Virus record (IMG/VR): IMGVR_UViG_3300037852_000220
Coordinates: 1 to 64,000 of that record
DNA: 64,000 nucleotides
Strand: one strand, 5' to 3'
Origin: a virus
Shown: in pieces, positions 1 through 42,887 of the stretch
Numbering within the stretch: the stretch's first letter is position 1
Layout of the letters: the number at the start of each line of letters is the position of its first letter
The notes under the pieces: generated by a model
Seen by the model: the letters and a program-made list of their open reading frames with translations, nothing else
The model's database searches: none
Told to the model about the DNA's origin: nothing
Program-made: the position numbers and the translations under genes

Positions 1-122
1 CTGAGGCCGCTGCGCAAGCCGTGGAAGCGGCGATCGTGAAAGCACCCGGCTTCGGTGATGGTCCGAGCGGCCTGAAGCATGATCCGATTTTGCGTGCCGG
101 CGAAGACTTCGGAGCCGAATGA
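1..122 (+). CDS. 3' fragment of upstream hypothetical protein (partial at window edge)
   Basis: frame-3 ORF open from window start to TGA at 120-122; stop overlaps next start as ATGA. Confidence 0.35.
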   Translation, partial: EAAAQAVEAAIVKAPGFGDGPSGLKHDPILRAGEDFGAE

Positions 123-499
123 TGAAGCCGCTTATTATCGACACAACGGTACACGGCCTGGTCGTGATTGATCACTCCGCGGGTGACAAGGAATCTACCG
201 CTGCTGAAGGCGTAGCAGAGACGCAAAAATGGGTTGATGCAGCCACGAAGATCTTTGCCGATTTCGGTTTCGTTTTGACCAACGGTTGGTGGAAACACGA
301 GGAGTCGGGCGTCTACGCGGCGGTCGACGATGCGCGTATGGGTCCGGGGCGTGTAGCGGCGGTATACGCCCATCGGATCGATTCGGTCGGGACCGACTAC
401 ATGCAAGGGCTTGTCACAATGCCATGGTACGGCGATGGTGCCGACATCGAGACGTGCAAACGCCTGCTCAAAAACGCCATCGCAACCGTACGAGGCTGA
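119..499 (+). CDS. hypothetical protein (126 aa)
   Basis: ORF track; tight packing with neighbours on same strand. Confidence 0.55.
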   Translation: MMKPLIIDTTVHGLVVIDHSAGDKESTAAEGVAETQKWVDAATKIFADFGFVLTNGWWKHEESGVYAAVDDARMGPGRVAAVYAHRIDSVGTDYMQGLVTMPWYGDGADIETCKRLLKNAIATVRG

Positions 500-500
500 T

Positions 501-770
501 ATGCGAGGAGTCAAAGCAAAACGTTGTCGTCAAGTCGCACGCGCTACGTGTGATGCATCAATCACCGAGATGTCCGGACGAGGTTTTAAGATACCTGAAG
601 TTCTCGGCAAAGACATCAATGGCGACGTTGTTCTGCAAGACGGAAAGCCCATTGTCCTGACTGCAGCATACATTCGCTACACGATGTTCTGGCCACGCAA
701 TTCGTATCGCCGTTCGTTGCGCGAGACGAAAACCGGAAAGCCTTGCGCTTGGATCAATGAGCGTAGCTAA
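501..770 (+). CDS. hypothetical protein (89 aa)
   Basis: in-frame ATG at 501 immediately after preceding stop, GAGG 5 nt upstream; the listed 411 start would overlap the previous gene. Confidence 0.5.
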   Translation: MRGVKAKRCRQVARATCDASITEMSGRGFKIPEVLGKDINGDVVLQDGKPIVLTAAYIRYTMFWPRNSYRRSLRETKTGKPCAWINERS

Positions 771-1013
771 ATGAGCCGCGTCTATTACGCACTAGCCTTC
801 GCGGGCCGAGTGTTGCATGTTGACAACAATGCCGTAGAGTGTAATAAGGTCCGCGACAAGGTTCGGGAAGAGTTCCCCGAGCAGGCTGAACGCATCGTCG
901 TGCGACAGTTGCCTTATCCATCAACAAACACTGTCGAAGGCGCATTCGAATGGATCAATTCCTTGCTCTCAGGCGAGGTTTTGAGTACACTGTCGGATCA
1001 GGAGGTAGCGTAA
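771..1013 (+). CDS. hypothetical protein (80 aa)
   Basis: ORF track, contiguous operon. Confidence 0.5.
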   Translation: MSRVYYALAFAGRVLHVDNNAVECNKVRDKVREEFPEQAERIVVRQLPYPSTNTVEGAFEWINSLLSGEVLSTLSDQEVA

Positions 1014-1418
1014 ATGGGGCAAGCAAAGAACCGCGGTACCAAGGAGCAACGCATCGCAGCAGCAGTTGCTGCGGGCCGCCACGCTGGCGCACCCGAGCGC
1101 ACCAAGCCTTACCAGAATCGCATGCCATTGACCACCCCAATGCTGAACTATCTGTGGGGGCAATTCAAGGTCGTGGGCGACCGGACGATCAACGAGATCC
1201 GCTCCGAAGCACTGCTGGCCCAGAAGGCGGCGCAAGCGCGGCGCTTCGCCGAATCGCAGCAGGCTTCGGCGCAAAATCTTGTCGACGAGAAAACGTTCAA
1301 GACGAACGCCCACGTGATCGAGGAAATGATCAAGGGACCGGCGCAAGCGGAATTGCTACAGCTGGACAGCGGTATCGACCAGGGGGCCAAAGATTTGATG
1401 GCCATGCTCAATGGCTGA
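1014..1418 (+). CDS. hypothetical protein (134 aa)
   Basis: ORF track. Confidence 0.55.
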   Translation: MGQAKNRGTKEQRIAAAVAAGRHAGAPERTKPYQNRMPLTTPMLNYLWGQFKVVGDRTINEIRSEALLAQKAAQARRFAESQQASAQNLVDEKTFKTNAHVIEEMIKGPAQAELLQLDSGIDQGAKDLMAMLNG

Positions 1419-2325
1419 ACGACGCATTGGCGAACGTCCGGTTGAAAATGAATGTCTTCAATGTAAGAAGGCATTCCCACAACCCATTCGCATACAAGGC
1501 GGGGGTGTTCGCAGTGTTTATTGCTCTCCAAAATGTCGCTCGTTGAATTGGGCACATGGCAATAGAGGTAAACGTCAGGCTACAATTTTGAAATACGAAA
1601 GTTCGCCGGATTTCAAAGAGAAGAAGAAAAGATGGCAAAAACTCGGACGCGCGCGTAAATACGGCTGGACATACGCTCGCTTTCAAACTCAATTGAGTAG
1701 GCAGGACCATCGATGTTACGGATGTCATTGCGCTATTGACGAAGAAACTGCACGTATCGACCATTGTCACGAAACCGAACGGGTCAGAGGTCTTTTGTGC
1801 AATGCATGTAACACAGGTCTTGGTTTGTTACGAGACAACCCTATGACATTGCGTCGCCTGTGGGCGTATCTTGATTATAAAATCGAACAACCGTGCGTAT
1901 ATTTGGCCGGGGCATTAAAAAATCCGCGAATCCCGGAGATCGGCAATGCTATTCGCTCGATCGGATTTGATGTTATGGACGAGTGGTGGACCCCCGGTGA
2001 GCATGCCGATACAAATTGGCAATTGTATGAACGAATTCGAGGACGAACATTTGAACAGGCTCTTGATGGACGTTCCGCACGAAACACTGTTGCGTTTGAT
2101 CAGGCGTTTATCGATTTGAGCGACATTTTTGTCAACGTTGCCCCCAGTGGTAAATCTGCAATGCTTGAAATGGGATACGCCAAGGCATGTGGAAAATACA
2201 CCATTCTGTTTCTAGATGGGCATCAACCCGAACGTTATGATGTGATGCCCGCATTAGTTGACGCCACGATTTTGGAAGAGCCCCAATTGATCGAAGTGAT
2301 TCGAACCATAGGAGCGAAGCTATGA
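1411..2325 (+). CDS. Cys-rich N-term + Endonuclease VII-type HNH nuclease fused to nucleoside 2-deoxyribosyltransferase/DNPH1(Rcl)-like domain
   Basis: EndoVII signature RCYGCHCAIDEE..IDHCHETERVRGLLCNACNTGLGLL; C-terminal VYLAGAL...VNVAPSGKSAMLEMGYAKACGKYTILFL resembles deoxyribosyltransferase/DNPH1 core with candidate catalytic Glu. Confidence 0.7.
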   Translation: MAERRIGERPVENECLQCKKAFPQPIRIQGGGVRSVYCSPKCRSLNWAHGNRGKRQATILKYESSPDFKEKKKRWQKLGRARKYGWTYARFQTQLSRQDHRCYGCHCAIDEETARIDHCHETERVRGLLCNACNTGLGLLRDNPMTLRRLWAYLDYKIEQPCVYLAGALKNPRIPEIGNAIRSIGFDVMDEWWTPGEHADTNWQLYERIRGRTFEQALDGRSARNTVAFDQAFIDLSDIFVNVAPSGKSAMLEMGYAKACGKYTILFLDGHQPERYDVMPALVDATILEEPQLIEVIRTIGAKL

Positions 2326-3137
2326 ACACGTACCTGCGCAACAATCTCCACAATTGCATCATGACCTTGGCAGTCGCCTTCATCGGCATTGCCATCGGTT
2401 ATTTCATTGCGCCTCAGGCAGCGCCATGTGAAGCCACGAAAACCGTTCTTACGATTCCGGGCGAGGGTTATTCCGTCGCACTACCGGCAACGTTCACGCG
2501 CGATCAGATGGAATTGCTCGACTTGGCACGTCAGACCGCAGTGGCTGACCAACTGCCGCATCCGCAGCTGCTTCAAGGCATTCTGATGCAGGAAACTCTA
2601 GCAGGCGCGCTACCGGCCTACAAGGTCGCAGGACAGGAGGCCGGCCTCCGACCCAATGAAAGGTACTACGGCGTCTACCAAATCAAGCTGGCGGCCGCCC
2701 GTGACGTCCTGAAGCGCTTTCCGGAGCTATGGGCCCAATACGATTTCCAGACACACATGGACGAAGAGGTGATTGCGCAGCTGATCGAGAACGATGCGTT
2801 CAGCACCGCGGTAGCCAGCAAGTATCTTAAGATTCTGTCGGACTCGGGCTATCACTCTGCCGGCGCCATGGCCGTGGCCTATAACAAAGGGCCAGGCGGA
2901 GCCATGGGCGTGATAGTCAGCGCTGACTCTTACGCAGTAGGGGTGTCCCGCCATATGGCGAAACTGGCACCTATCGCGCCGGCCGTGTATCATGTTCAAC
3001 CTGGCGATTCGCTTAGCAAGATTGCGGCAGCTGTCCACAAGGACATGGCTGCCATTTTCGAGCGGAATCGATGGGCGTTCGTCAAAGGGGATCCGAATAC
3101 CCTAATGGCAAGTGTCGACATTCAACTGCCTCGCTGA
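2322..3137 (+). CDS. membrane-anchored lytic transglycosylase (SLT domain) with C-terminal LysM
   Basis: N-terminal TM helix; SLT motifs LMQETLAG, YYGVYQIK, AYNKGPG; C-terminal YHVQPGDSLSKIA LysM-like. Confidence 0.7.
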   Translation: MNTYLRNNLHNCIMTLAVAFIGIAIGYFIAPQAAPCEATKTVLTIPGEGYSVALPATFTRDQMELLDLARQTAVADQLPHPQLLQGILMQETLAGALPAYKVAGQEAGLRPNERYYGVYQIKLAAARDVLKRFPELWAQYDFQTHMDEEVIAQLIENDAFSTAVASKYLKILSDSGYHSAGAMAVAYNKGPGGAMGVIVSADSYAVGVSRHMAKLAPIAPAVYHVQPGDSLSKIAAAVHKDMAAIFERNRWAFVKGDPNTLMASVDIQLPR

Positions 3138-3143
3138 GCCGCT

Positions 3144-3674
3144 ATGTTTGATTGGCTGAAGACGATACTGGACGGCCTATGGGGACATCTACTCCCATTC
3201 ACGGTGATCCACCAATACGAACGAGGCGGCGTGTTTCGGTTGGGGCTTTACAACCGCACGCTGGAGCCCGGGTTCCATTGGAGATGGCCGTTGGCTGAGC
3301 AAATCGTGACCGAGCATACAGTCACGACGACTCTGGCTCTGGAGCCGCAAACGATCACGACGAAGGACAACAAGTCAGTCGTGGTGAGCGGTATTGTACG
3401 ATACCGGATCGTTAATGTTCAATCGTTTGTATGCGAAATCAGCAGTCCGCATGACGTCCTGCGCGATACGAGTATGGGCTCGGTTCTGAAACAGACGCGA
3501 CAAATCGAATTGCGCACACTGCTGGACGAACCGCCGGAAAGCAAAATTGCTTCAGACATTCGTCGACAGGTCAAAGAGTTCGGCATCGAGATCGATTCGT
3601 TCACTTTTATCGACATTGGGCAGATTCGCACCTTGCGCCTGATCACTCACACCCACGCACTTCCGGGGGTATGA
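3144..3674 (+). CDS. SPFH/band-7 (stomatin/HflKC-like) domain protein
   Basis: VIHQYERGGVFRLG...TKDNKSVVVSGIVRYRI pattern typical of SPFH domain. Confidence 0.6.
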   Translation: MFDWLKTILDGLWGHLLPFTVIHQYERGGVFRLGLYNRTLEPGFHWRWPLAEQIVTEHTVTTTLALEPQTITTKDNKSVVVSGIVRYRIVNVQSFVCEISSPHDVLRDTSMGSVLKQTRQIELRTLLDEPPESKIASDIRRQVKEFGIEIDSFTFIDIGQIRTLRLITHTHALPGV

Positions 3675-3677
3675 CTA

Positions 3678-3845
3678 TGAAGTGGATTTTGTGTTTCGTC
3701 GCAGGCGCATTCGTAGGGGCAGCGTTTGTCGCCCTTGGAGAAAACATCGCAGTCGACTCAGTTGTCGAATGCATCAAACAACCCGACTCATGCGGCATCG
3801 AGGAAGAAGATCTCGACCCGCAAGAACAGTTGGTTCCCGCTTAAT
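3678..3845 (+). CDS. small membrane protein (55 aa), possible SPFH partner
   Basis: ATG 4 nt after SPFH stop; MKWILCFVAGAFVGAAFVALG TM helix; below 60-aa cutoff of ORF track. Confidence 0.35.
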
Positions 3846-3862
3846 CCACCTCAGGAGCAGCA

Positions 3863-4150
3863 ATGGCCGCCAAGCCTTTCAAGAATGCAATGACCCTCGA
3901 TGAATTCGGAACGAAGCACGACAGAACCGTTTTCATTCCGGCGCGCATCACGCAGACGTTGAAGATGCTCGGCGATGCGGGAATGTATGACATGGATTTC
4001 CTTCGCGAAGCCAAGGTTTCGACGAATGATATCGGACCTTTCCGAGAACAATTTGAAGGTCACACGGTCATTGTCCGCGAGAACGGCAAATCCAAGATCG
4101 TGTGGTTTGGAACAATCGCAGCAGCGGCAAAGGCCCGCGACAAGGTGTAA
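3863..4150 (+). CDS. hypothetical protein (95 aa)
   Basis: ORF track. Confidence 0.5.
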   Translation: MAAKPFKNAMTLDEFGTKHDRTVFIPARITQTLKMLGDAGMYDMDFLREAKVSTNDIGPFREQFEGHTVIVRENGKSKIVWFGTIAAAAKARDKV

Positions 4151-4152
4151 GC

Positions 4153-5625
4153 ATGAAAACAATAAGCCTCGAAGAATTTGAACGCCGGCACCACCCAATG
4201 CACGATGAGGGTGAACAGATCCATCAATTCGATCTGGACATCCGCTCGGGGATGAGGTTTATCGTTACTGCAGCCCAGAACGCCACTCCGGTTCATCCGG
4301 AGTGGTGGTCCTGCCTTACCGGCATGGCAAAGGCGAAAGACGCGCAACTGGTCGTCATTCCGTTGCGCTACAAGAACCCGACGAGCCGCTGGACCGGTAG
4401 TCAGCGTAACGACGATTATTGGGTCAGCGCAGTCATGCCGTACTTGTTCAACGGCCGGCACGAGTTCAACAAGAACCTTATGCTGCTCGGTGACATCAAG
4501 ATCCAGCCGACAGCAAGCAGCCCGCTGACGGGGTCGGATGCACTGTCGTTCGCTTCGTCGGGCATCATCGGTCACACGAAGATGCAGCTGCGCTCGATCG
4601 CCACTCCTAGCAATCGGATGGCGAAGATCCTGACCACGACGGGCGCCTGCACGGTGGAAAACTACACCGATTCTCGAGCCGGCAAGACCGGCGAATTCCA
4701 CCACTCGCTGTCGGCGATCATGGTCGAAGTCGTTGGTTCGAAGTTCTTCCTGCGTCAGCTGCACTTCGACAAGAAAACGAAATCGTGTACGGATATCGGC
4801 ATGCAGTACTTCGCCGACGGATCGTTCGGCGTGGCCCCGCGCGCGCTGGCCCTCGTCATGGGTGACACGCACGTCGACTTCGTGGATCCGGGCGTCGAGC
4901 ATGCGACCTGGGGCCGCAACGGTATCGTTGAGGTAATTCGGCCCGAGCACGTCGTATGGCACGATACACTCGATGCGTACAGCTGCTCGCCACATCACGC
5001 CGGGGATCCGTTCATAGCCCGCGCGAAGCAGATGAGTGGTCGGCACAATGTGCGTGCCGAAGTGGAACGTGCGATCCAGTACGTTGCCACACACACCTCG
5101 GATCACTTCAAATCCATCGTGATCGCCAGCAACCACGACGATATGCTGGCCCGATGGGTCAAGCGGCACGATTGGAAGACGGATCCCTCGAACGCCGAGT
5201 TCTACCTGGAGCTCGCGCTGCGCATGCACCGCGGTACCCGGATGACGGATCACGGCACCGAGCATCCGGATCCGTTCGCGATGCTGTTGCGGGAAGCGAA
5301 CATCCCGACGCTGCGAGTGCTGGACCTGGACGAGTCGTTTGTGCTCGGCAATGTCGAGCTCAGCATGCACGGCGACAAGGGCCCGAATGGTGCGCGCGGT
5401 TCGATCAAGAACATCCGCAGGCTCGGCATCCGCTCGATTATCGGCCACAGTCACATTTACGGAATTGACGAGGGTTGCTACCAGGGCGGCACATCCTCGC
5501 GGCTGCGCCAGGATTGGAATCATGGCGCGAGCGCGTGGTTGAACGTACATATCCTGTTGAATCACGACGGTAAGCGTCAAGGTTTGGTGATGATCGAAGG
5601 TTTATGGAGAGGTGTATGTGGATAA
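4153..5625 (+). CDS. calcineurin-like metallophosphoesterase with ~250-aa N-terminal domain of unknown function
   Basis: motifs MGDTHVDF (GDxHxD), ASNHDD (GNHD/E), IGHSHIYG (GHxH); in-frame ATG 4153 after stop of previous gene. Confidence 0.7.
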   Translation: MKTISLEEFERRHHPMHDEGEQIHQFDLDIRSGMRFIVTAAQNATPVHPEWWSCLTGMAKAKDAQLVVIPLRYKNPTSRWTGSQRNDDYWVSAVMPYLFNGRHEFNKNLMLLGDIKIQPTASSPLTGSDALSFASSGIIGHTKMQLRSIATPSNRMAKILTTTGACTVENYTDSRAGKTGEFHHSLSAIMVEVVGSKFFLRQLHFDKKTKSCTDIGMQYFADGSFGVAPRALALVMGDTHVDFVDPGVEHATWGRNGIVEVIRPEHVVWHDTLDAYSCSPHHAGDPFIARAKQMSGRHNVRAEVERAIQYVATHTSDHFKSIVIASNHDDMLARWVKRHDWKTDPSNAEFYLELALRMHRGTRMTDHGTEHPDPFAMLLREANIPTLRVLDLDESFVLGNVELSMHGDKGPNGARGSIKNIRRLGIRSIIGHSHIYGIDEGCYQGGTSSRLRQDWNHGASAWLNVHILLNHDGKRQGLVMIEGLWRGVCG

Positions 5626-5974
5626 AGATGAAAAGGCCAAATTCCATCAGCGCCCGGCGTGTTGTCCGCCAGAAGCTTGGGAAGATTGGTCGATGCCGGC
5701 GTATGTAGATCCTGCCAATTCGTTTGACTGGATTTGCGGCGACTGCAACCCGGCATACAAAGCAAAGATGATGGCGCAAGGCAAGTGTGACTGGCCTTGC
5801 GTCGAGTTTTTTCTGATGCCAATCATTGACAACGGTCGCGTCATCGGTAACGAGATCCAAGGTCGACGCATGTCGATTCCCAACTACCGCGGGTATCCGG
5901 AGGGGCGAAAGATTATTCGCATCGTGGACGCGAAGAAAGGTGTGTACGAACTAGAGCCTGAGAAGCCTAGATGA
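5612..5974 (+). CDS. Cys-rich hypothetical protein
   Basis: ORF track; CCPP..WICGDCNP..KCDWPC cysteine pattern. Confidence 0.45.
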   Translation: MYVDKDEKAKFHQRPACCPPEAWEDWSMPAYVDPANSFDWICGDCNPAYKAKMMAQGKCDWPCVEFFLMPIIDNGRVIGNEIQGRRMSIPNYRGYPEGRKIIRIVDAKKGVYELEPEKPR

Positions 5975-7644
5975 GACTTCGACCGTATCAGTCCGATCTC
6001 GAAGCGGCCGTCTACGCCGCCTGGGATCGAGGGGTTCAAAACATCCTCGCCGTGGCTGCCACGGGCTCTGGGAAGACCGTGATCTTCTCGGACGTCATAC
6101 AGCGTCACCGCGCCGCCAGCGTAGCTGTAGCGCACCGGCAAGAGCTCGTGGGTCAGATCAGCCTGGCGGTGGCTCGCAACGGAGTTCGACACCGTTTGAT
6201 AGGCCCTGCGTCGGTTGCGAAGGATTGCATGCAGCTGCACATGCTGGAACTCGGGCGCAATTACATCGAGCCGGGCGCGCCGGCCGCCGTAGCCGGCGTC
6301 GACACGCTGATCCGGATGAATCCGAGGGATCCTTGGTTCAAACAGGTCACTCTCGGGATTCAGGATGAAGCCCATCATTTGCTTCGAGACAACAAGTGGG
6401 GCAAAGCTGCGGCGATGTTCCCCAATGCGAAGTGGCTTGGTGTAACGGCCACGCCAATGCGTGCCGACGGGCGCGGGCTCGGACGCAATGCTGAAGGAAT
6501 TTTCGACACAATGGTTCAGGCGCCGGGCATGCGGGATTTGATTCGCATAGGGTACCTGACCGATTACCGAATATTCACCGTCCCATCTGACGTGGATTTG
6601 AGAAATGTTCCTATCTCTGCTGGTGGTGATTTCAGTCCAGAGCCACTCCGGAAAGCTGTCCACCGAAGTCACATTGTCGGGGATGTTGTCCAACACTATC
6701 ACCGAATCGCGGGTGGAAAACTCGGAGTCACTTTTGCCGTTGACGTCGAATCAGCCACGGCCATCAGTATCGCCTTCAACGCCTCAGGAGTCAAATCGAA
6801 GGTCGTTACTGCTGACACCCCAAACCGAGAGCGCGTTCAAGTTTTGCGAGCGTTCAGGAGACGTGAACTATTGCAATTGGTGAACGTGGATCTATTCGGC
6901 GAAGGATTCGATTTACCGGCGATCGAAGTCGTTAGTTTCGCCCGGCCGACGCATTCGTTTCCATTATATGCGCAGCAATTCGGTCGCACGCTACGAGTGA
7001 TGGTCGACGATATCTATTGGCCGTACTGGGACACATATTCCGATTTTGAACGGCTACAGATTATCGCGGCGTCCTCGAAACCGAATGGCATCATCATCGA
7101 CCACGTGGGGAACGTCGGACGCCATGGTCTGCCCGATCGCGCCCGAGGCTATAGTCTCGAAGGTCGCGACAAGCGCAGCAAGTCCGTCGCGGTCATCCCC
7201 GTGAGCACGTGCGGCAATTGCGGAGCAACCTATGAACGAATCGAGATTCGCTGTCCGTACTGCAGTACCTCCCCACTCGTTGTCGGACGTGGTTCCCCAG
7301 AGTTGGTTGACGGTGATTTGCATGAGCTCGATGCGGCCACACTGGAGCGTATGCGAGGCGAGATCGATGCTCCTCCAAATATCTGGTTCGGAGCACCGCC
7401 CGCGGTGGTTCAAGGTCTAACCGGCAACTATTGGAAGAAGCATCATGCGCAACAGCCGCTGCGCGCCGCCATTGCACAGTGGTGCGGTTATCGCACTCAG
7501 GATCCAGATCCCGCGAGCGACTCGGTGCGCCGGGCGATGAAAGAATTCTATTTGACATTCGGAGTCGATGTGATGAGCGCGCAGGCGTTGCCGGCCAGCG
7601 AGGCTACCGATCTGGCAGAACGTATTCAACGGAGCATCTCATGA
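5971..7644 (+). CDS. SF2 DEAD/DEAH-box DNA helicase
   Basis: Walker A ATGSGKT, DEAH box (IQDEAHH), C-terminal Zn-ribbon CGNCG..CPYC. Confidence 0.8.
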   Translation: MRLRPYQSDLEAAVYAAWDRGVQNILAVAATGSGKTVIFSDVIQRHRAASVAVAHRQELVGQISLAVARNGVRHRLIGPASVAKDCMQLHMLELGRNYIEPGAPAAVAGVDTLIRMNPRDPWFKQVTLGIQDEAHHLLRDNKWGKAAAMFPNAKWLGVTATPMRADGRGLGRNAEGIFDTMVQAPGMRDLIRIGYLTDYRIFTVPSDVDLRNVPISAGGDFSPEPLRKAVHRSHIVGDVVQHYHRIAGGKLGVTFAVDVESATAISIAFNASGVKSKVVTADTPNRERVQVLRAFRRRELLQLVNVDLFGEGFDLPAIEVVSFARPTHSFPLYAQQFGRTLRVMVDDIYWPYWDTYSDFERLQIIAASSKPNGIIIDHVGNVGRHGLPDRARGYSLEGRDKRSKSVAVIPVSTCGNCGATYERIEIRCPYCSTSPLVVGRGSPELVDGDLHELDAATLERMRGEIDAPPNIWFGAPPAVVQGLTGNYWKKHHAQQPLRAAIAQWCGYRTQDPDPASDSVRRAMKEFYLTFGVDVMSAQALPASEATDLAERIQRSIS

Positions 7645-7964
7645 ACATGGAAGAGTATGAATTGACGCTGCTATCCGAAGAGCTTGGCGAGACGATCGAT
7701 GAATGTCTGCAGGCGCAGAAGCGCATCAGCAAGTTGAAGCGGTTTGGACCCGATGAGGTTATGCCAGGTCAGCTTGTCGACAATGCCGCTCGATTGCGTA
7801 ACGAGATACTCGATGTATTGCTCTGCGTGGAAATGCTGACCGAGCGCGGTCTATTCAAACGCATTACGCAGCAGGACGTGAATCATGCGTATTTCGAACG
7901 CAAAGCCAAGATCGACAGCAATTTGGAGCGTTCGATTGTACAGGGTCGAGTCAATCCCACATGA
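7641..7964 (+). CDS. MazG-like nucleotide pyrophosphohydrolase (putative)
   Basis: ATG at 7641 overlaps helicase stop (ATGA); EELGETIDECLQA resembles MazG helix; size ~107 aa. Confidence 0.5.
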   Translation: MNMEEYELTLLSEELGETIDECLQAQKRISKLKRFGPDEVMPGQLVDNAARLRNEILDVLLCVEMLTERGLFKRITQQDVNHAYFERKAKIDSNLERSIVQGRVNPT

Positions 7965-8425
7965 GTCCATATGACGATTGGGCCGCCCGCTGGCCGCTGG
8001 CCGCCGCTGAGCTCCGAGCCATCGCGCTGCCTGCAATCGTGTCCACGGCACCCGCAGGGGCTGGCGAGGATTACGCGCAGGCCCAGGTGCGTCTGGAAGC
8101 ATCGAAGAAGGGCGGCCGCCTGTTCCGGAACAACGTCGGTGCGGCATACCTTACCGACGGTACGTTCGTTCGCTTCGGGCTGGCGAACGACAGCCCAGCG
8201 GTGAACAAGACCCTGAAGTCGGGCGATCTGATCGGCCCGATGCCGGTGCTGATCACGCCGGCCCATGTGGGTACAGTGATCGCCCAATTCACCAGCCGCG
8301 AGATCAAAAAGCCTGGCTGGAAGTATACCGGTACCGAGCGGGAGAAGGCTCAGCTGAATTGGGCGAACATGGTGAACAGCTTGGGCGGAAATGCCGCATT
8401 TGCCACGGGGCCTGGCAGTCTTTGA
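7961..8425 (+). CDS. VRR-NUC domain nuclease
   Basis: KKGGRLFRNNVG...SGDLIG...ITPAHVGTVIAQFTSREIKKPG pattern of VRR-NUC PD-(D/E)XK. Confidence 0.65.
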   Translation: MSPYDDWAARWPLAAAELRAIALPAIVSTAPAGAGEDYAQAQVRLEASKKGGRLFRNNVGAAYLTDGTFVRFGLANDSPAVNKTLKSGDLIGPMPVLITPAHVGTVIAQFTSREIKKPGWKYTGTEREKAQLNWANMVNSLGGNAAFATGPGSL

Positions 8426-8450
8426 CGCTACCGTCAACATGTGATATACT
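8422..8450 (+). promoter_or_regulatory. sigma70-like promoter TTGACG-17-TATACT with palindromic operator TTGACGCTACCGTCAA
   Basis: exact -35/-10 hexamers at canonical spacing 22 nt upstream of regulator gene. Confidence 0.5.
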
Positions 8451-8471
8451 GATCAGAACCGCGGAGTCCCA

Positions 8472-8774
8472 ATGACCAAACGCCTTGAACCGCTCGTTCG
8501 TCTCGAACAGATCCTCGATGCCGCCCTTCGCATGAGCCGCCTATACGGTTATCGCGATATGACTCGGAAAGACGTAGCGGGTGCCGCAAAGTGTTCCGAA
8601 GCGCTGGTCTCATCATACTTCGGCACGATGGTTCAATTGCGCCGGGCTGTCGTCAGAGCGGCCATTGATCAGAAGGATCTCGCGATAATCGGACAGGCAC
8701 TCGCGGCAAAAGACAAGCACGCTCAAAAAGCCCCGCTTGATCTGCGTGTTGCTGCGCTCGCCTCGCTGGCATGA
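8472..8774 (+). CDS. small HTH transcriptional regulator (TetR-like N-terminal HTH)
   Basis: LEQILDAALRMSRLYGYRDMTRKDVAGAAKCSEALVSSYF helix-turn-helix; sits behind palindromic promoter. Confidence 0.5.
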   Translation: MTKRLEPLVRLEQILDAALRMSRLYGYRDMTRKDVAGAAKCSEALVSSYFGTMVQLRRAVVRAAIDQKDLAIIGQALAAKDKHAQKAPLDLRVAALASLA

Positions 8775-23895: not shown

Positions 23896-24747
23896 TTAGA
23901 ACGCAAACGGATACGCCGGAGGCGTGAAATTGGACGTGTAACGAGCTACGTTGCTGAATCGAACTTCATCTATATTCCCGTCGAATATTTCTCCGATAGC
24001 TGCGATATCTCCGCCTATGGCAATTGGGTGTCCATTCGTGGAAATAGTCCCCGTGAGTGTCCCACTGCCGAAAGAAGTGCCTTGAAAGAATGCAATCATT
24101 ATTCCGGACGAACGAACAAGCGCACAATGCAACCACTGACCGGTCGGTACCGTAGGGCCAATTGCGGCAAATTGATATGCGCCAACACTGTTGCTTGCAT
24201 AAAAATGAATGAGATGGTTTATATCGCATTGAAGCAGAAGCCATGACGCCCCACCCACCGTTCCTGTTTGACCTAAGAACGAAGTGTTGATAGCCATAGA
24301 AGTTATCGTGTTGAAATACACGAAACATTCAATCGTGAAATCTCCAACAAAATCCCATTGAGTTGCGTCAGGCGTAGTGATACGTTGATTAGTAGTGCTA
24401 AGAAGAGATGCTGTTCCAAATTTGAAGTTTGTAGTCGATAGTGCCGCACCGTTCACACCAGTCCAAGTGTTTCCATACACGTCCGTGAAAGTGGTTGAAC
24501 CATTCGTACCATCAAGATGCAACAACGCCAATCCGTTCGGCCCGGACTGCAACTGCCCAAATACCGTATCTGGAGATTCTTGTACTGCTACTCTTCCAAT
24601 CGCATTCAAGAAAGAACGAGCACTGACGCGATCGTAGCCTTCGATGATCGCAGCACGGCCTAGAATTGGAGCCAACGGTGGCGCTAGAAGCCCGCTGTTG
24701 TGCTCAGGCACAATCAGCTTTATGTATTGATCAACGAGGATCATCAC
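23896..24747 (-). CDS. LamG domain tail fibre paralog A
   Basis: same N- and C-terminal blocks as 23027-23893, divergent middle. Confidence 0.6.
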   Translation of the reverse strand: MMILVDQYIKLIVPEHNSGLLAPPLAPILGRAAIIEGYDRVSARSFLNAIGRVAVQESPDTVFGQLQSGPNGLALLHLDGTNGSTTFTDVYGNTWTGVNGAALSTTNFKFGTASLLSTTNQRITTPDATQWDFVGDFTIECFVYFNTITSMAINTSFLGQTGTVGGASWLLLQCDINHLIHFYASNSVGAYQFAAIGPTVPTGQWLHCALVRSSGIMIAFFQGTSFGSGTLTGTISTNGHPIAIGGDIAAIGEIFDGNIDEVRFSNVARYTSNFTPPAYPFAF

Positions 24748-40928: not shown

Positions 40929-42053
40929 TCAGAAGGGTAGCGACACTATACCGGTATCGCGATACTGCGCCGACACGCGAAGGACACCAGATGCCGCGGG
41001 AAGTCGAAGTGCGGGCCTTGCGATGTACGCCATACCGATTGCACGCACGATGTCATTTGTTTCTTGAATGATCGCAGTGGTCACCGGAAGCTTTGCTTTG
41101 GCGATGACCGCGTCTACAAGTTCGCGGATCGCTGCAGTGCCTGATGAAATGACTGTACCGCCCGAATGCGCAATGTCATTATGTTCTTTGATCAGGGCCT
41201 GGCCAATCGACGCAACTGTCGCGTGCGACAGCACCGAGTCGATACGTTCGCGAATCGCTGCAGTACCTGTTGCTATAGGTGAGGCTAACGCGCGAAAAAT
41301 ATCATGAGACTCGAGAATTGCGGCAGTTCCTTGATTGGCAATGGAAGTGGCCGAGCCTTGCGCGCGGTCCTGCTGTTCGAGCATGCTCTGCACTGAAAAT
41401 GGTGCAGATGGCGGAGTGAAGTTCGCGGTGTAAACCGCTTTCCCCATCGTGATGCGGGCTTCATCGATGAATCCATTCCACGTGCTATTGGGAGAACCAT
41501 TAGCGGATCCGATCGCTTGACCTGTCATGCCTTTAATAATCGACCCACTGTATGAACCGGTTGGCGTTTGCGCAACACCGTCAAGGTACATGGTAAACGT
41601 CGAACCGTATCGTACCCACGCGCCGTGATGCCATGATCCTGTAGATAGAACCGCACTCGGTGTACTTATCGCAACGCTCCAATTGGTAGAGCCGTCAGCG
41701 CTACCGCAGAGCATGAACATGTCGCCGTTATTGAAAAAGCAGAGACATCCCGAAAATCCGGAGCCCTGAGATCCAAACACAACGGTTGATCCGCTAAGGC
41801 TGTTCGCGTATACCCAGGCCTCGAATGTCCAATCCTGAGTCAGCGGGGCAAAGATGTCGTTGCTCGTGCTGATTAATACGCCGCCGCCCAGGCCCAGGGA
41901 TGACGGGCCAAATTTTTGCTGAGTGGTGGAAAGTGCGGCACCGCCAACAGCCGACCACGAGCTACCGAAGACATCGGTGAACGTGGTCGAGCCGTTGGAT
42001 CCGTCAAAGTGCAATAGCGCTGTCGACGGGTCGGTGTAGAGGGTAGCGGCCAT
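40929..42053 (-). CDS. LamG-domain protein with E-x-HD repeats (third fibre-like paralog, in head module)
   Basis: LLHFDGSNGSTTFTDVFGS and AVYTANFTPP blocks as in 23027-24747; ESHDIF/EHNDIA/ETNDIV repeats. Confidence 0.5.
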   Translation of the reverse strand: MAATLYTDPSTALLHFDGSNGSTTFTDVFGSSWSAVGGAALSTTQQKFGPSSLGLGGGVLISTSNDIFAPLTQDWTFEAWVYANSLSGSTVVFGSQGSGFSGCLCFFNNGDMFMLCGSADGSTNWSVAISTPSAVLSTGSWHHGAWVRYGSTFTMYLDGVAQTPTGSYSGSIIKGMTGQAIGSANGSPNSTWNGFIDEARITMGKAVYTANFTPPSAPFSVQSMLEQQDRAQGSATSIANQGTAAILESHDIFRALASPIATGTAAIRERIDSVLSHATVASIGQALIKEHNDIAHSGGTVISSGTAAIRELVDAVIAKAKLPVTTAIIQETNDIVRAIGMAYIARPALRLPAASGVLRVSAQYRDTGIVSLPF

Positions 42054-42671: not shown

Positions 42672-42887
42672 TCATCCTTCATGCGCAAATTTGCGCTTTT
42701 TCCAAATTTCTTTTAACAGAGCCGACTGTTTTGCTCTGACCGCGGGATCTTGATATCGTCGCTTATGAGTATCGGACATTTTCTTCCGAGTCTCTTCAGA
42801 TGCGACGTATGTTACCACTCCGACATGCGCTGCCGCAATTCTAGCACGATGTTCGGCAGACTTCGGGATACCCTTTCTTTTTCGCAA
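42672..42887 (-). CDS. stand-alone NUMOD3-repeat DNA-binding protein (71 aa)
   Basis: TTG start; KSAEHRARIAAAHVG / SEETRKKMSDTHKRR / AVRAKQSALLKEIWKK repeats typical of homing-endonuclease DNA-binding modules. Confidence 0.45.
   Translation of the reverse strand: MRKRKGIPKSAEHRARIAAAHVGVVTYVASEETRKKMSDTHKRRYQDPAVRAKQSALLKEIWKKRKFAHEG

Follow-up and report, generated by a model that had tools for sequence, protein, structure and literature searches.

A phage gene joining an Endonuclease VII-type nuclease to a nucleoside deoxyribosyltransferase-like domain takes the place of a resident standalone gene

The window analysed here is a stretch of 64,000 nucleotides (positions 1 to 64,000 of IMG/VR record IMGVR_UViG_3300037852_000220) that belongs to a tailed phage, as judged from the genes read across it. 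It contains a complete open reading frame (ORF) encoding a protein in which an N-terminal zinc ribbon and an Endonuclease VII (EndoVII)-type HNH nuclease are joined to a C-terminal domain resembling nucleoside deoxyribosyltransferases (NDTs). An earlier, sequence-only reading of this DNA had described the ORF as a fusion of the latter two modules; the ORF exists as described there, and the third module, the zinc ribbon, had been missed. The fusion gene is part of a co-directional gene string. Its start overlaps the stop of an upstream ORF by 8 nucleotides (ATGGCTGA), its stop overlaps the start of a downstream LysM gene by 4 nucleotides (ATGA), and a scan for promoters and terminators at the gene gave no signal above shuffle expectation. 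The features of the locus are listed below in window coordinates; two of them mark the breakpoints of an exchange between the fusion gene and a standalone NDT-like gene that occupies the same position, hereafter the slot, in related contigs.

1411..2325, + strand: fusion ORF, complete, ATG start, 304 amino acids (zinc ribbon, EndoVII-type HNH nuclease, NDT-like domain)
1447..1542, + strand: N-terminal C4 zinc ribbon (residues 13-44; C15, C18, C38, C42)
1651..1875, + strand: EndoVII-type HNH (beta-beta-alpha-metal) core (residues 81-155)
1888..2322, + strand: NDT/DNPH1-superfamily domain (residues 160-304)
1405..1411, no strand: left breakpoint of the exchange, where the window and contig L136 part (start codon of the slot gene)
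2310..2325, no strand: right breakpoint of the allele exchange, in the last ~5 codons (..GAK.), with AGGAGCGAAGC and ATGA common to the standalone alleles
1014..1418, + strand: upstream flanking ORF, 134 amino acids, without family match, next to the slot in contigs L135, L136, L137 and L138
2322..3137, + strand: downstream flanking gene, 271 amino acids, LysM domain, next to the slot in all relatives

Over residues 81-155 the nuclease core matches the Pfam endonuclease VII family (PF02945), scoring 63.6 bits where the cut-off is 23.6 (E=1.6e-17), and it also matches phrog_2914 of the PHROGs collection (E=2e-25), in agreement with the EndoVII motif previously noticed in the N-terminal half. 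The catalytic residues D117, H118 and H120 (nucleotides 1759-1770) and N134, together with the zinc ligands C102, C105, C130 and C133, are all eight invariant in a family alignment of 60 sequences. The catalytic residues correspond to the beta-beta-alpha-metal set D40, H41, H43 and N62 of the T4 enzyme, and the column aligning N134 with T4 N62 reads D in the N62D entry 1e7l. A profile search against the PDB recovered T4 EndoVII (2e-9) and Hpy99I (3e-9), the match covering only residues 8-71 of the 157 in T4. These data indicate that the nuclease core is intact and that the C-terminal helical dimerisation domain of the T4 type is absent, the NDT-like domain standing in its place. In a comparison with NCBIfam and PADLOC, PADLOC matched the HNH core only, to a type II restriction enzyme model.

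The four cysteines of the zinc ribbon are nearly invariant in the same alignment, and the ribbon was found in about 70 of 90 homologs. It gives a weak match to zf-FCS (E=0.005-0.014) and contains two short strands in an AlphaFold2 model of the protein; the name YacG/DUF329-like carried by some JGI homologs is in line with a zinc ribbon. This module is probably an additional DNA-binding element.

The C-terminal half was assigned by several comparisons. Its score against PF05014 stays under the gathering threshold (15.9-18.3 bits versus 28.8, E=0.003-0.015), and no precomputed PF05014 match was found among the homologs of the fusion or of its NDT domain. It matches the 'nucleoside deoxyribosyltransferase' family phrog_12607 with E=8.6e-11. 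The AlphaFold2 monomer model, computed on the family alignment, is confident (mean predicted local distance difference test score, pLDDT, 90.8; predicted template modelling score, pTM, 0.74) and adopts an NDT-type Rossmann-like fold. The first 13 matches of this model in a Foldseek search against the PDB are all NDT-clan structures, with YtoQ (8of6), a Desulfotalea NDT (7o62), BcmB (4jen), MilB (4ohb), a designed phosphodeoxyribosyltransferase (4hx9) and DNPH1 among the matches. The deoxyribosyltransferase/DNPH1-like fold proposed by the sequence-only reading is therefore upheld. Its label 'SLOG-type' is imprecise, since the specific relatives are NDT-clan enzymes. In profile comparisons of the kind that it had suggested as a check, PF05014 remained below threshold, a profile of the C-terminal domain alone matched MilB (E=1.7e-4), and an hhalign comparison with DNPH1 was weak with consistent residues.

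In the latter comparison, for which the human DNPH1 sequence was checked against PDB entries, residues Y164, K170, D230 and E253 fall on the Tyr of YFCGS, the Arg of SIRGG, the Asp of EQDLEW and the catalytic Glu of DNPH1, at a weak pairwise E of 0.026. Y164 and D230 are invariant in the 60-sequence alignment, and D230 also aligns with an Asp of MilB. The glutamate of the GYA context that had been put forward as a possible nucleophile is E253 (codon at nucleotides 2167-2169). It is likewise invariant, lies in a (S/G)xxxExG(Y/W)A catalytic motif and falls both on the ELG Glu of DNPH1 and on the catalytic E103 of MilB, the column reading Ala in the E103A entry 4ohb, which makes it a strong candidate for that function. 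As to a possible phosphate pocket, K/R170 takes the position of the DNPH1 SIRGG Arg in the same weak hhalign match, and K248 and S249 are conserved. The complete set of conserved positions comprises Y164, K170, N171, W192, D200, D230, P245, G247, K248, S249, E253, G255 and Y256, and the domain carries a conserved insert specific to the family (DEWxTPGExADxNWQxYExxRGR). The best sequence matches are glycosidases of nucleoside monophosphates (NMPs), yet the best structural matches are nucleoside transferases. Sequence and model together identify the C-terminal half as an NDT/DNPH1-type N-glycosidase or transferase domain with a predicted Tyr/Asp/Glu catalytic set. The fusion protein as a whole consists of three modules, and both of its active sites look intact.

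Public gene calls on L135-type contigs (P0267 and P0272; 160 amino acids) start at the internal Met145 (window 1843-2325, + strand) and cover the NDT domain only. These starts are probably a gene-caller artefact; an internal start at Met145 may also yield an additional, free NDT domain.

The comparison with relatives outlined a replacement of one allele by another at a fixed position. A scan of metagenomes with the downstream LysM gene returned three close relatives (L135, L136 and L137), and IMG/VR queries with the LysM neighbour, the helicase, the polymerase of locus L003 and the ThyX of locus L132 returned no usable close relatives. L135 shares 98% DNA identity with window positions 1-8774 and contains the fusion, its copy differing by 1 nucleotide in 915 (V36I). 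L136 matches the window at 97.7% identity as far as position 1408 and at 92% from position 2405, and the flanks of L137 are 71-77% identical to the window. In both contigs the segment between the flanks is shorter and codes for a standalone NDT-like protein, of 147 amino acids in L136 and 145 in L137. These two proteins share 80% identity with each other and only 35-36% with window residues 162-303. The left breakpoint between the window and L136 coincides with the start codon of the slot gene, and the right one lies ~15 nucleotides before the stop, inside the shared AGGAGCGAAGC/ATGA stretch that serves the downstream gene, AGGAGCGAAGC being a ribosome-binding stretch common to fusion and standalone alleles.

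Two longer contigs present the same arrangement. L138 (15.8 kb) is syntenic with the window at the protein level, has a standalone NDT gene in the slot and carries no EndoVII anywhere on its 15.8 kb. The contig of P0275 (16.5 kb) is collinear with the window through the upstream ORF and the LysM, Band_7, T5 A1-like, helicase and TetR genes to the primase; its slot also contains a standalone NDT gene, and no Endonuclease_7 match was obtained on its 16.5 kb. The standalone proteins in the slots of L136, L137, L138 and the P0275 contig measure 145-147 amino acids. In the phage lineage of the window, the fusion hence replaces the resident standalone NDT gene, gene for gene, and its presence is polymorphic at one fixed site among close relatives, as observed for homing genes. 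The earlier reading had also held that this was not a standard phage resolvase; because the fusion sits in exactly the slot of the relatives' standalone NDT, it looks instead like a self-spreading replacement copy.

Base composition sets the fusion gene apart from its surroundings. Its GC content is 0.47, and 0.41 at third codon positions (GC3), against 0.57 and about 0.65 for the window, making it the lowest-GC 915-nucleotide stretch of the 64 kb (rank 1 of 1262), with all three modules equally low. The same holds in 8 of 8 independent lineages, in which the GC content of the fusion gene falls 2.5-10 points short of that of its surroundings. Five standalone genes of this subfamily on long contigs, by contrast, equal or exceed their surroundings (+0.2 to +3.8). 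Two further marks of homing genes are observed as well, namely the foreign composition and, given the single fused clade and the diverse genomic contexts described below, horizontal spread among unrelated backbones. Between the window and L135 the fusion gene has diverged by 0.11%, versus 2.8% and 6.9% for the adjacent genes; this is only suggestive of a recent spread of the fusion, because the divergence of the pair is mosaic and another region is equally clean. A naive Poisson test of this low divergence (p about 7e-8) was discounted on account of the same mosaicism.

Other segments of the window also vary among relatives or stand out by composition. Of all segments, the LysM gene differs most between the window and L135 (6.9% versus a mean of 1.9%). 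In L136 its first ~80 nucleotides have been replaced as well, which points to repeated recombination at this border or to pressure to diversify there. A second indel polymorphism in the lineage is provided by 357 extra bases in L135 (L135:5983-6339), between the A1-like gene and the next ORF, with a tRNA-Ser(tga) (L135:6193-6280); the insert is missing at window junction 5617/5618, and the window is without any tRNA gene. The second compositional outlier (23896-24747, - strand; GC 0.48, GC3 0.44) encodes a 283-amino-acid Laminin_G_3/ConA-like domain protein that matches tail-fibre, baseplate and virion structural PHROGs and adjoins a Baseplate_J gene; it is probably an exchanged receptor-binding module. 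A further Laminin_G_3 protein is encoded at 40929-42053 (- strand), and a third low-GC outlier is a 71-amino-acid ORF among the head genes (42672-42887, - strand; GC 0.47, GC3 0.39). Beyond these, the window encodes a T5 A1-like 'DNA transfer protein' (phrog_1745; 4102-5625), a DEAD-type helicase, an NrS-1/D5-type primase, a DUF2800 PD-(D/E)XK nuclease, a DNA polymerase (phrog_1252) and a terminase, as well as baseplate, sheath-like and portal structural genes. The portal protein (PF06381; 43978-46140, - strand) carries a C-terminal PF18823 'InPase' inorganic-pyrophosphatase-like domain (E=5e-29), which is unusual in a portal.

The full-length fusion recurs in about 90 clusters at the 90% identity level, with 40-78% identity and all from metagenomes, which answers the earlier suggestion to look for the fusion in other genomes. 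Among 50,697 deposited phage records there is none that encodes 80% or more of the fusion protein, BFVD returned single-domain matches only, NCBIfam holds no model for the fusion, and full-text literature searches returned no description of the EndoVII and NDT combination. The C-terminal domain alone is represented by 517 sequences at the 50% level; the best 150 of these comprise 109 standalone proteins, 24 EndoVII fusions and 17 other extensions, and a search with a standalone member returned 3,856 clusters with E<=1e-30. When 160 NDT domains were arranged in a neighbour-joining tree, the fused ones (35/35) fell in one clade of 38 tips, outside which lie the resident standalone alleles of the window's relatives and the copies of Nostoc phage NMeng1 (WKV17019.1) and Paracoccus phage ParKuw1 (WFG40871.1). 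The grouping of the 35 fused domains in a single clade implies that the fusion appears to have arisen once, and the fused genes would thus have branched off, at a single origin, from a very large family made up of standalone NDT-like genes of phages.

Among the other partners to which the NDT domain is fused, none was informative save for one weak LAGLIDADG match. It is seen in the metagenomic protein P0246 (273 amino acids), a member of the standalone NDT family in which the NDT domain (residues 2-109) is followed by a weak LAGLIDADG_1 match (E=0.002), a hint that other types of homing endonuclease also associate with the NDT gene family. In addition, the A1-like phage locus L024 contains three separate EndoVII-type ORFs in about 5 kb (L024:11490-16071), an indication that, in some phages, genes of the PF02945 family can multiply as selfish elements do.

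On long contigs, fusions always lie in phage replication or deoxynucleotide modules, on widely differing backbones. Five loci present the following gene orders.

L003: PolA (with a faint UDG match), fusion, MazG, PF05014 NDT
L131: ThyX, fusion, one further gene (x), dCMP deaminase, dGTP_diPhyd_N, PolA
L132: dGTP_diPhyd_N .. ThyX, fusion, NT5C
L133: dGTP_diPhyd_N .. fusion, DUF4406 .. Band_7
L007: fusion upstream of RNase T, Prim-Pol and PolA

ThyX lies directly upstream of the fusion in two of these loci (L131 and L132). L007, L131 and L133 each encode a separate short EndoVII in addition to the fusion, so the fused nuclease is not their only one. In the lineage of the window, L138 (6709-8020) and the P0275 contig carry dGTP_diPhyd_N (MazZ-like) and dCMP deaminase genes 2-3 kb upstream of the slot; tblastn found no homologs of these genes inside the window, beyond whose 5' end the equivalent position would lie. 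A recent preprint reports that phage PF05014 NDTs are enriched on 2-aminoadenine (dZ) contigs with PolA, UDG and DatZ domains, and shows one of these enzymes to act as a purine deoxyribosyltransferase with a preference for dA (bioRxiv 10.1101/2025.10.22.683976), which supports a nucleotide-pool role of phage NDTs in general. The possibility that the window itself derives from a Z-genome phage was rejected, as family scans of about 60 window ORFs identified no PurZ/DatZ, adenylosuccinate-synthetase-like or HD-type dATPase gene.

Two other neighbours recur. An SPFH/Band_7 gene (3144-3674, + strand) lies about 1 kb downstream of the NDT slot in the window, and in L133, a contig with no other relation to the window, a Band_7 gene (L133:9995-10525) follows the fusion at a distance of about 1.2 kb. 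In NMeng1 and ParKuw1 the standalone NDT is located beside a T5 A1-like 'DNA transfer protein' gene. A general link between NDT and A1-like genes was nevertheless discarded, since none of 40 A1-like loci (525 kb) carries an NDT domain; these loci share no other synteny with the window.

Taken together, we tentatively favour, with a probability of about 0.45, the reading that the NDT domain performs the slot's normal nucleotide-pool job and that the zinc ribbon and HNH nuclease make the fused allele self-propagating in a homing-like manner. The NDT domain would cleave or transfer the base of a deoxynucleoside 5'-monophosphate or deoxynucleoside and so remodel the deoxynucleoside triphosphate (dNTP) pool of the phage; a phosphorylated substrate is mildly favoured, given the DNPH1-like Lys/Arg170 and the NMP N-glycosidases found as best sequence matches. 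In a mixed infection, the zinc ribbon and HNH endonuclease would cut genomes with the standalone allele, or its surroundings, and recombinational repair from the fusion-bearing genome would copy the fusion into the cut genome. The sequence-divergent fused NDT would preserve the function of the displaced gene while itself lacking the target site, and the outcome would be homing that needs neither intron nor intein. As a resolvase the nuclease can be dispensed with, since relatives lack it and three fusion-bearing phages have a separate short EndoVII, and the ThyX, MazG/dGTP_diPhyd_N, NT5C, dCMP deaminase and other NDT-clan genes found adjacent support a nucleotide-pool role.

Several observations weigh against this homing-like reading. 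The classical role of PF02945 proteins is that of junction resolvases and not of homing enzymes. The low GC content and the mosaic replacement are also compatible with the ordinary recombination of an accessory gene, illegitimate or through flank homology, which calls for no nuclease-driven drive. The low divergence of the fusion gene from its L135 copy has counterparts elsewhere in the alignment, 28 of 315 sliding windows, in two regions, being equally clean. The compositional contrast is not uniform either, the standalone genes of L136 and L137 (2 of 7 standalone genes) lying 2.9 and 4.9 GC points below their very short flanks, and both of these contigs are short. The neighbour-joining tree was built without bootstrap, and three short 'standalone' tips, possibly truncated calls, fall inside the fused clade. 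Finally, the strict conservation of the fusion and of its linker (TLRRLxAYLD) over 40-78% identity means that a joint biochemical function could equally be possible.

The homing-like reading has a stronger form, which we regard as unlikely and still worth serious thought. Synthetic 'cleave and rescue' gene drives, engineered in insects, combine a nuclease with a cleavage-resistant, recoded copy of its target gene. The fused gene would be a natural drive of this kind: in relatives that infect the same cell, its EndoVII-type nuclease would destroy the NDT allele resident there, or the DNA immediately around that allele, and would be copied in together with its own in-frame, divergent and hence cut-resistant NDT domain.

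The alternative that survives best, although we consider it rather unlikely, is a bifunctional metabolic enzyme in which the HNH module attacks host or other non-phage DNA, exonucleases release deoxynucleoside monophosphates, and the NDT-type domain hydrolyses or trans-glycosylates particular deoxynucleoside monophosphates or deoxynucleosides and thereby alters the make-up of the precursor pool. The fusion would then couple precursor supply and processing, and its mobility would amount to ordinary mosaic exchange of an accessory gene. This explanation accommodates the consistent deoxynucleotide-metabolism neighbourhood (ThyX, dCMP deaminase, NT5C, MazG/dGTP_diPhyd_N and PolA), the strong conservation of both active sites and the conserved inter-domain linker. 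It also draws on the NDT genes near T5 A1-like 'DNA transfer protein' genes in the window lineage and in two Autographiviridae phages, a link that is not general, as the 40 A1-like loci illustrate. However, the NDT alone is enough for close relatives, the DNA of the phage itself would be at risk from a non-specific nuclease, and the window yielded no genes for self-protection by base modification. Furthermore, this explanation does not account for the foreign composition, which in every genome is confined to the fused form.

The absence of the T4 dimerisation region raises a second alternative, a junction-resolving or structure-specific nuclease in which the NDT fold serves as the dimerisation scaffold that the C-terminal domain provides in T4 EndoVII, and in which the NDT site might still be active or might sense nucleotides. 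The enzymes of the NDT family are obligate dimers. Since the EndoVII similarity ends at T4 residue 71, something must substitute for the missing region; no other EndoVII was found in the 64 kb of the window, and a scan of roughly 60 ORFs revealed no resolvase of a different family. Nonetheless, the syntenic L138 and P0275 contigs are without EndoVII on their 16 kb, the three fusion-bearing phages with a separate short EndoVII have another such enzyme at hand, and invariant NDT catalytic residues would be needless in a scaffold, making this proposal improbable.

The least supported explanation, and a very improbable one, is a DNA glycosylase coupled to a nuclease, with the NDT-like domain flipping out and excising a particular, possibly modified, base of host or competitor DNA, or acting against nucleotide-signal defence, and the EndoVII module cleaving there: the domain pairing is logically compatible, T4 EndoVII also cuts at abasic sites, the zinc ribbon suggests DNA binding and a conserved aromatic-rich insert (W192, W203, Y206) could hold a base, but the characterised matches (NDTs, MilB, BcmB and DNPH1) act on free nucleosides or nucleotides and none on polymeric DNA, the same pocket is present in thousands of standalone copies without a DNA-binding module, and neither modification genes in the window nor PADLOC or NCBIfam anti-defence similarity were found. 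The same findings lend no support to the modified-DNA or anti-defence role advanced by the sequence-only reading, whose observation is thus confirmed and whose interpretation is partly supported, right as to the domains and not as to the proposed role.

Both halves of the protein come from known enzyme families, and its parts are therefore not new. For the architecture and for its behaviour as a mobile replacement allele, literature searches returned no description, and the combination is common in metagenomic phages (about 90 clusters). The allele replacement turns an odd fusion into a testable hypothesis, that of a nuclease gene spreading with a spare copy of the gene that it displaces. If true, this would give homing nucleases a third route into a useful gene, next to introns or inteins and insertion between genes, and one that does not cost the nuclease's host the function of that gene, with a bearing on phage mosaicism and on the biology of selfish elements. 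The analysis also highlights the standalone phage NDT-like family, with thousands of clusters and a distinctive conserved pocket, amid dNTP-pool genes, a family relevant to how phages bias nucleotide supply.

The comparison with known systems places the fusion between several of them. It resembles T4 endonuclease VII (gp49) and Hpy99I in its zinc-bound HNH core, with the catalytic Asp-His...His...Asn and four cysteines, and it differs from the T4 enzyme in having an NDT-like domain for the C-terminal dimerisation region and an additional N-terminal zinc ribbon; T4 Glu65 corresponds to Leu137 in the fusion, as in Hpy99I. From MilB, BcmB, BlsM, DNPH1, NDTs and YtoQ of the NDT clan it is set apart by 15-20% identity, by its family-specific insert and by its fusion to a nuclease. 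With the standalone phage NDT-like proteins of phrog_12607, exemplified by NMeng1, ParKuw1 and the L136/L137 alleles, it shares the subfamily, the conserved pocket and, in close relatives, the slot. In contrast to the fusion, these proteins lack the zinc ribbon and HNH core, have native composition on long contigs, share 35-40% identity with the window NDT domain and fall outside the fused clade.

Phages also harbour free-standing homing endonuclease genes, such as the seg and mob genes of T4 and those of the I-TevI type. Like such genes, including the 'fractured gene' type (PMC2677866), the fusion occurs sporadically at a fixed site among close relatives, is AT-rich, is sited in nucleotide-metabolism and replication genes and encodes an HNH-type nuclease with extra DNA-binding modules. 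Known homing elements insert between genes or in introns and inteins, whereas the fusion is joined in frame to a divergent copy of the gene that it replaces; its nuclease is of the EndoVII type, outside the recognised homing families, and homing is what we infer for it. To the synthetic 'cleave and rescue' drives the likeness is one of logic only, a parallel drawn from the anatomy of the fused gene and from the allele replacement at its slot.

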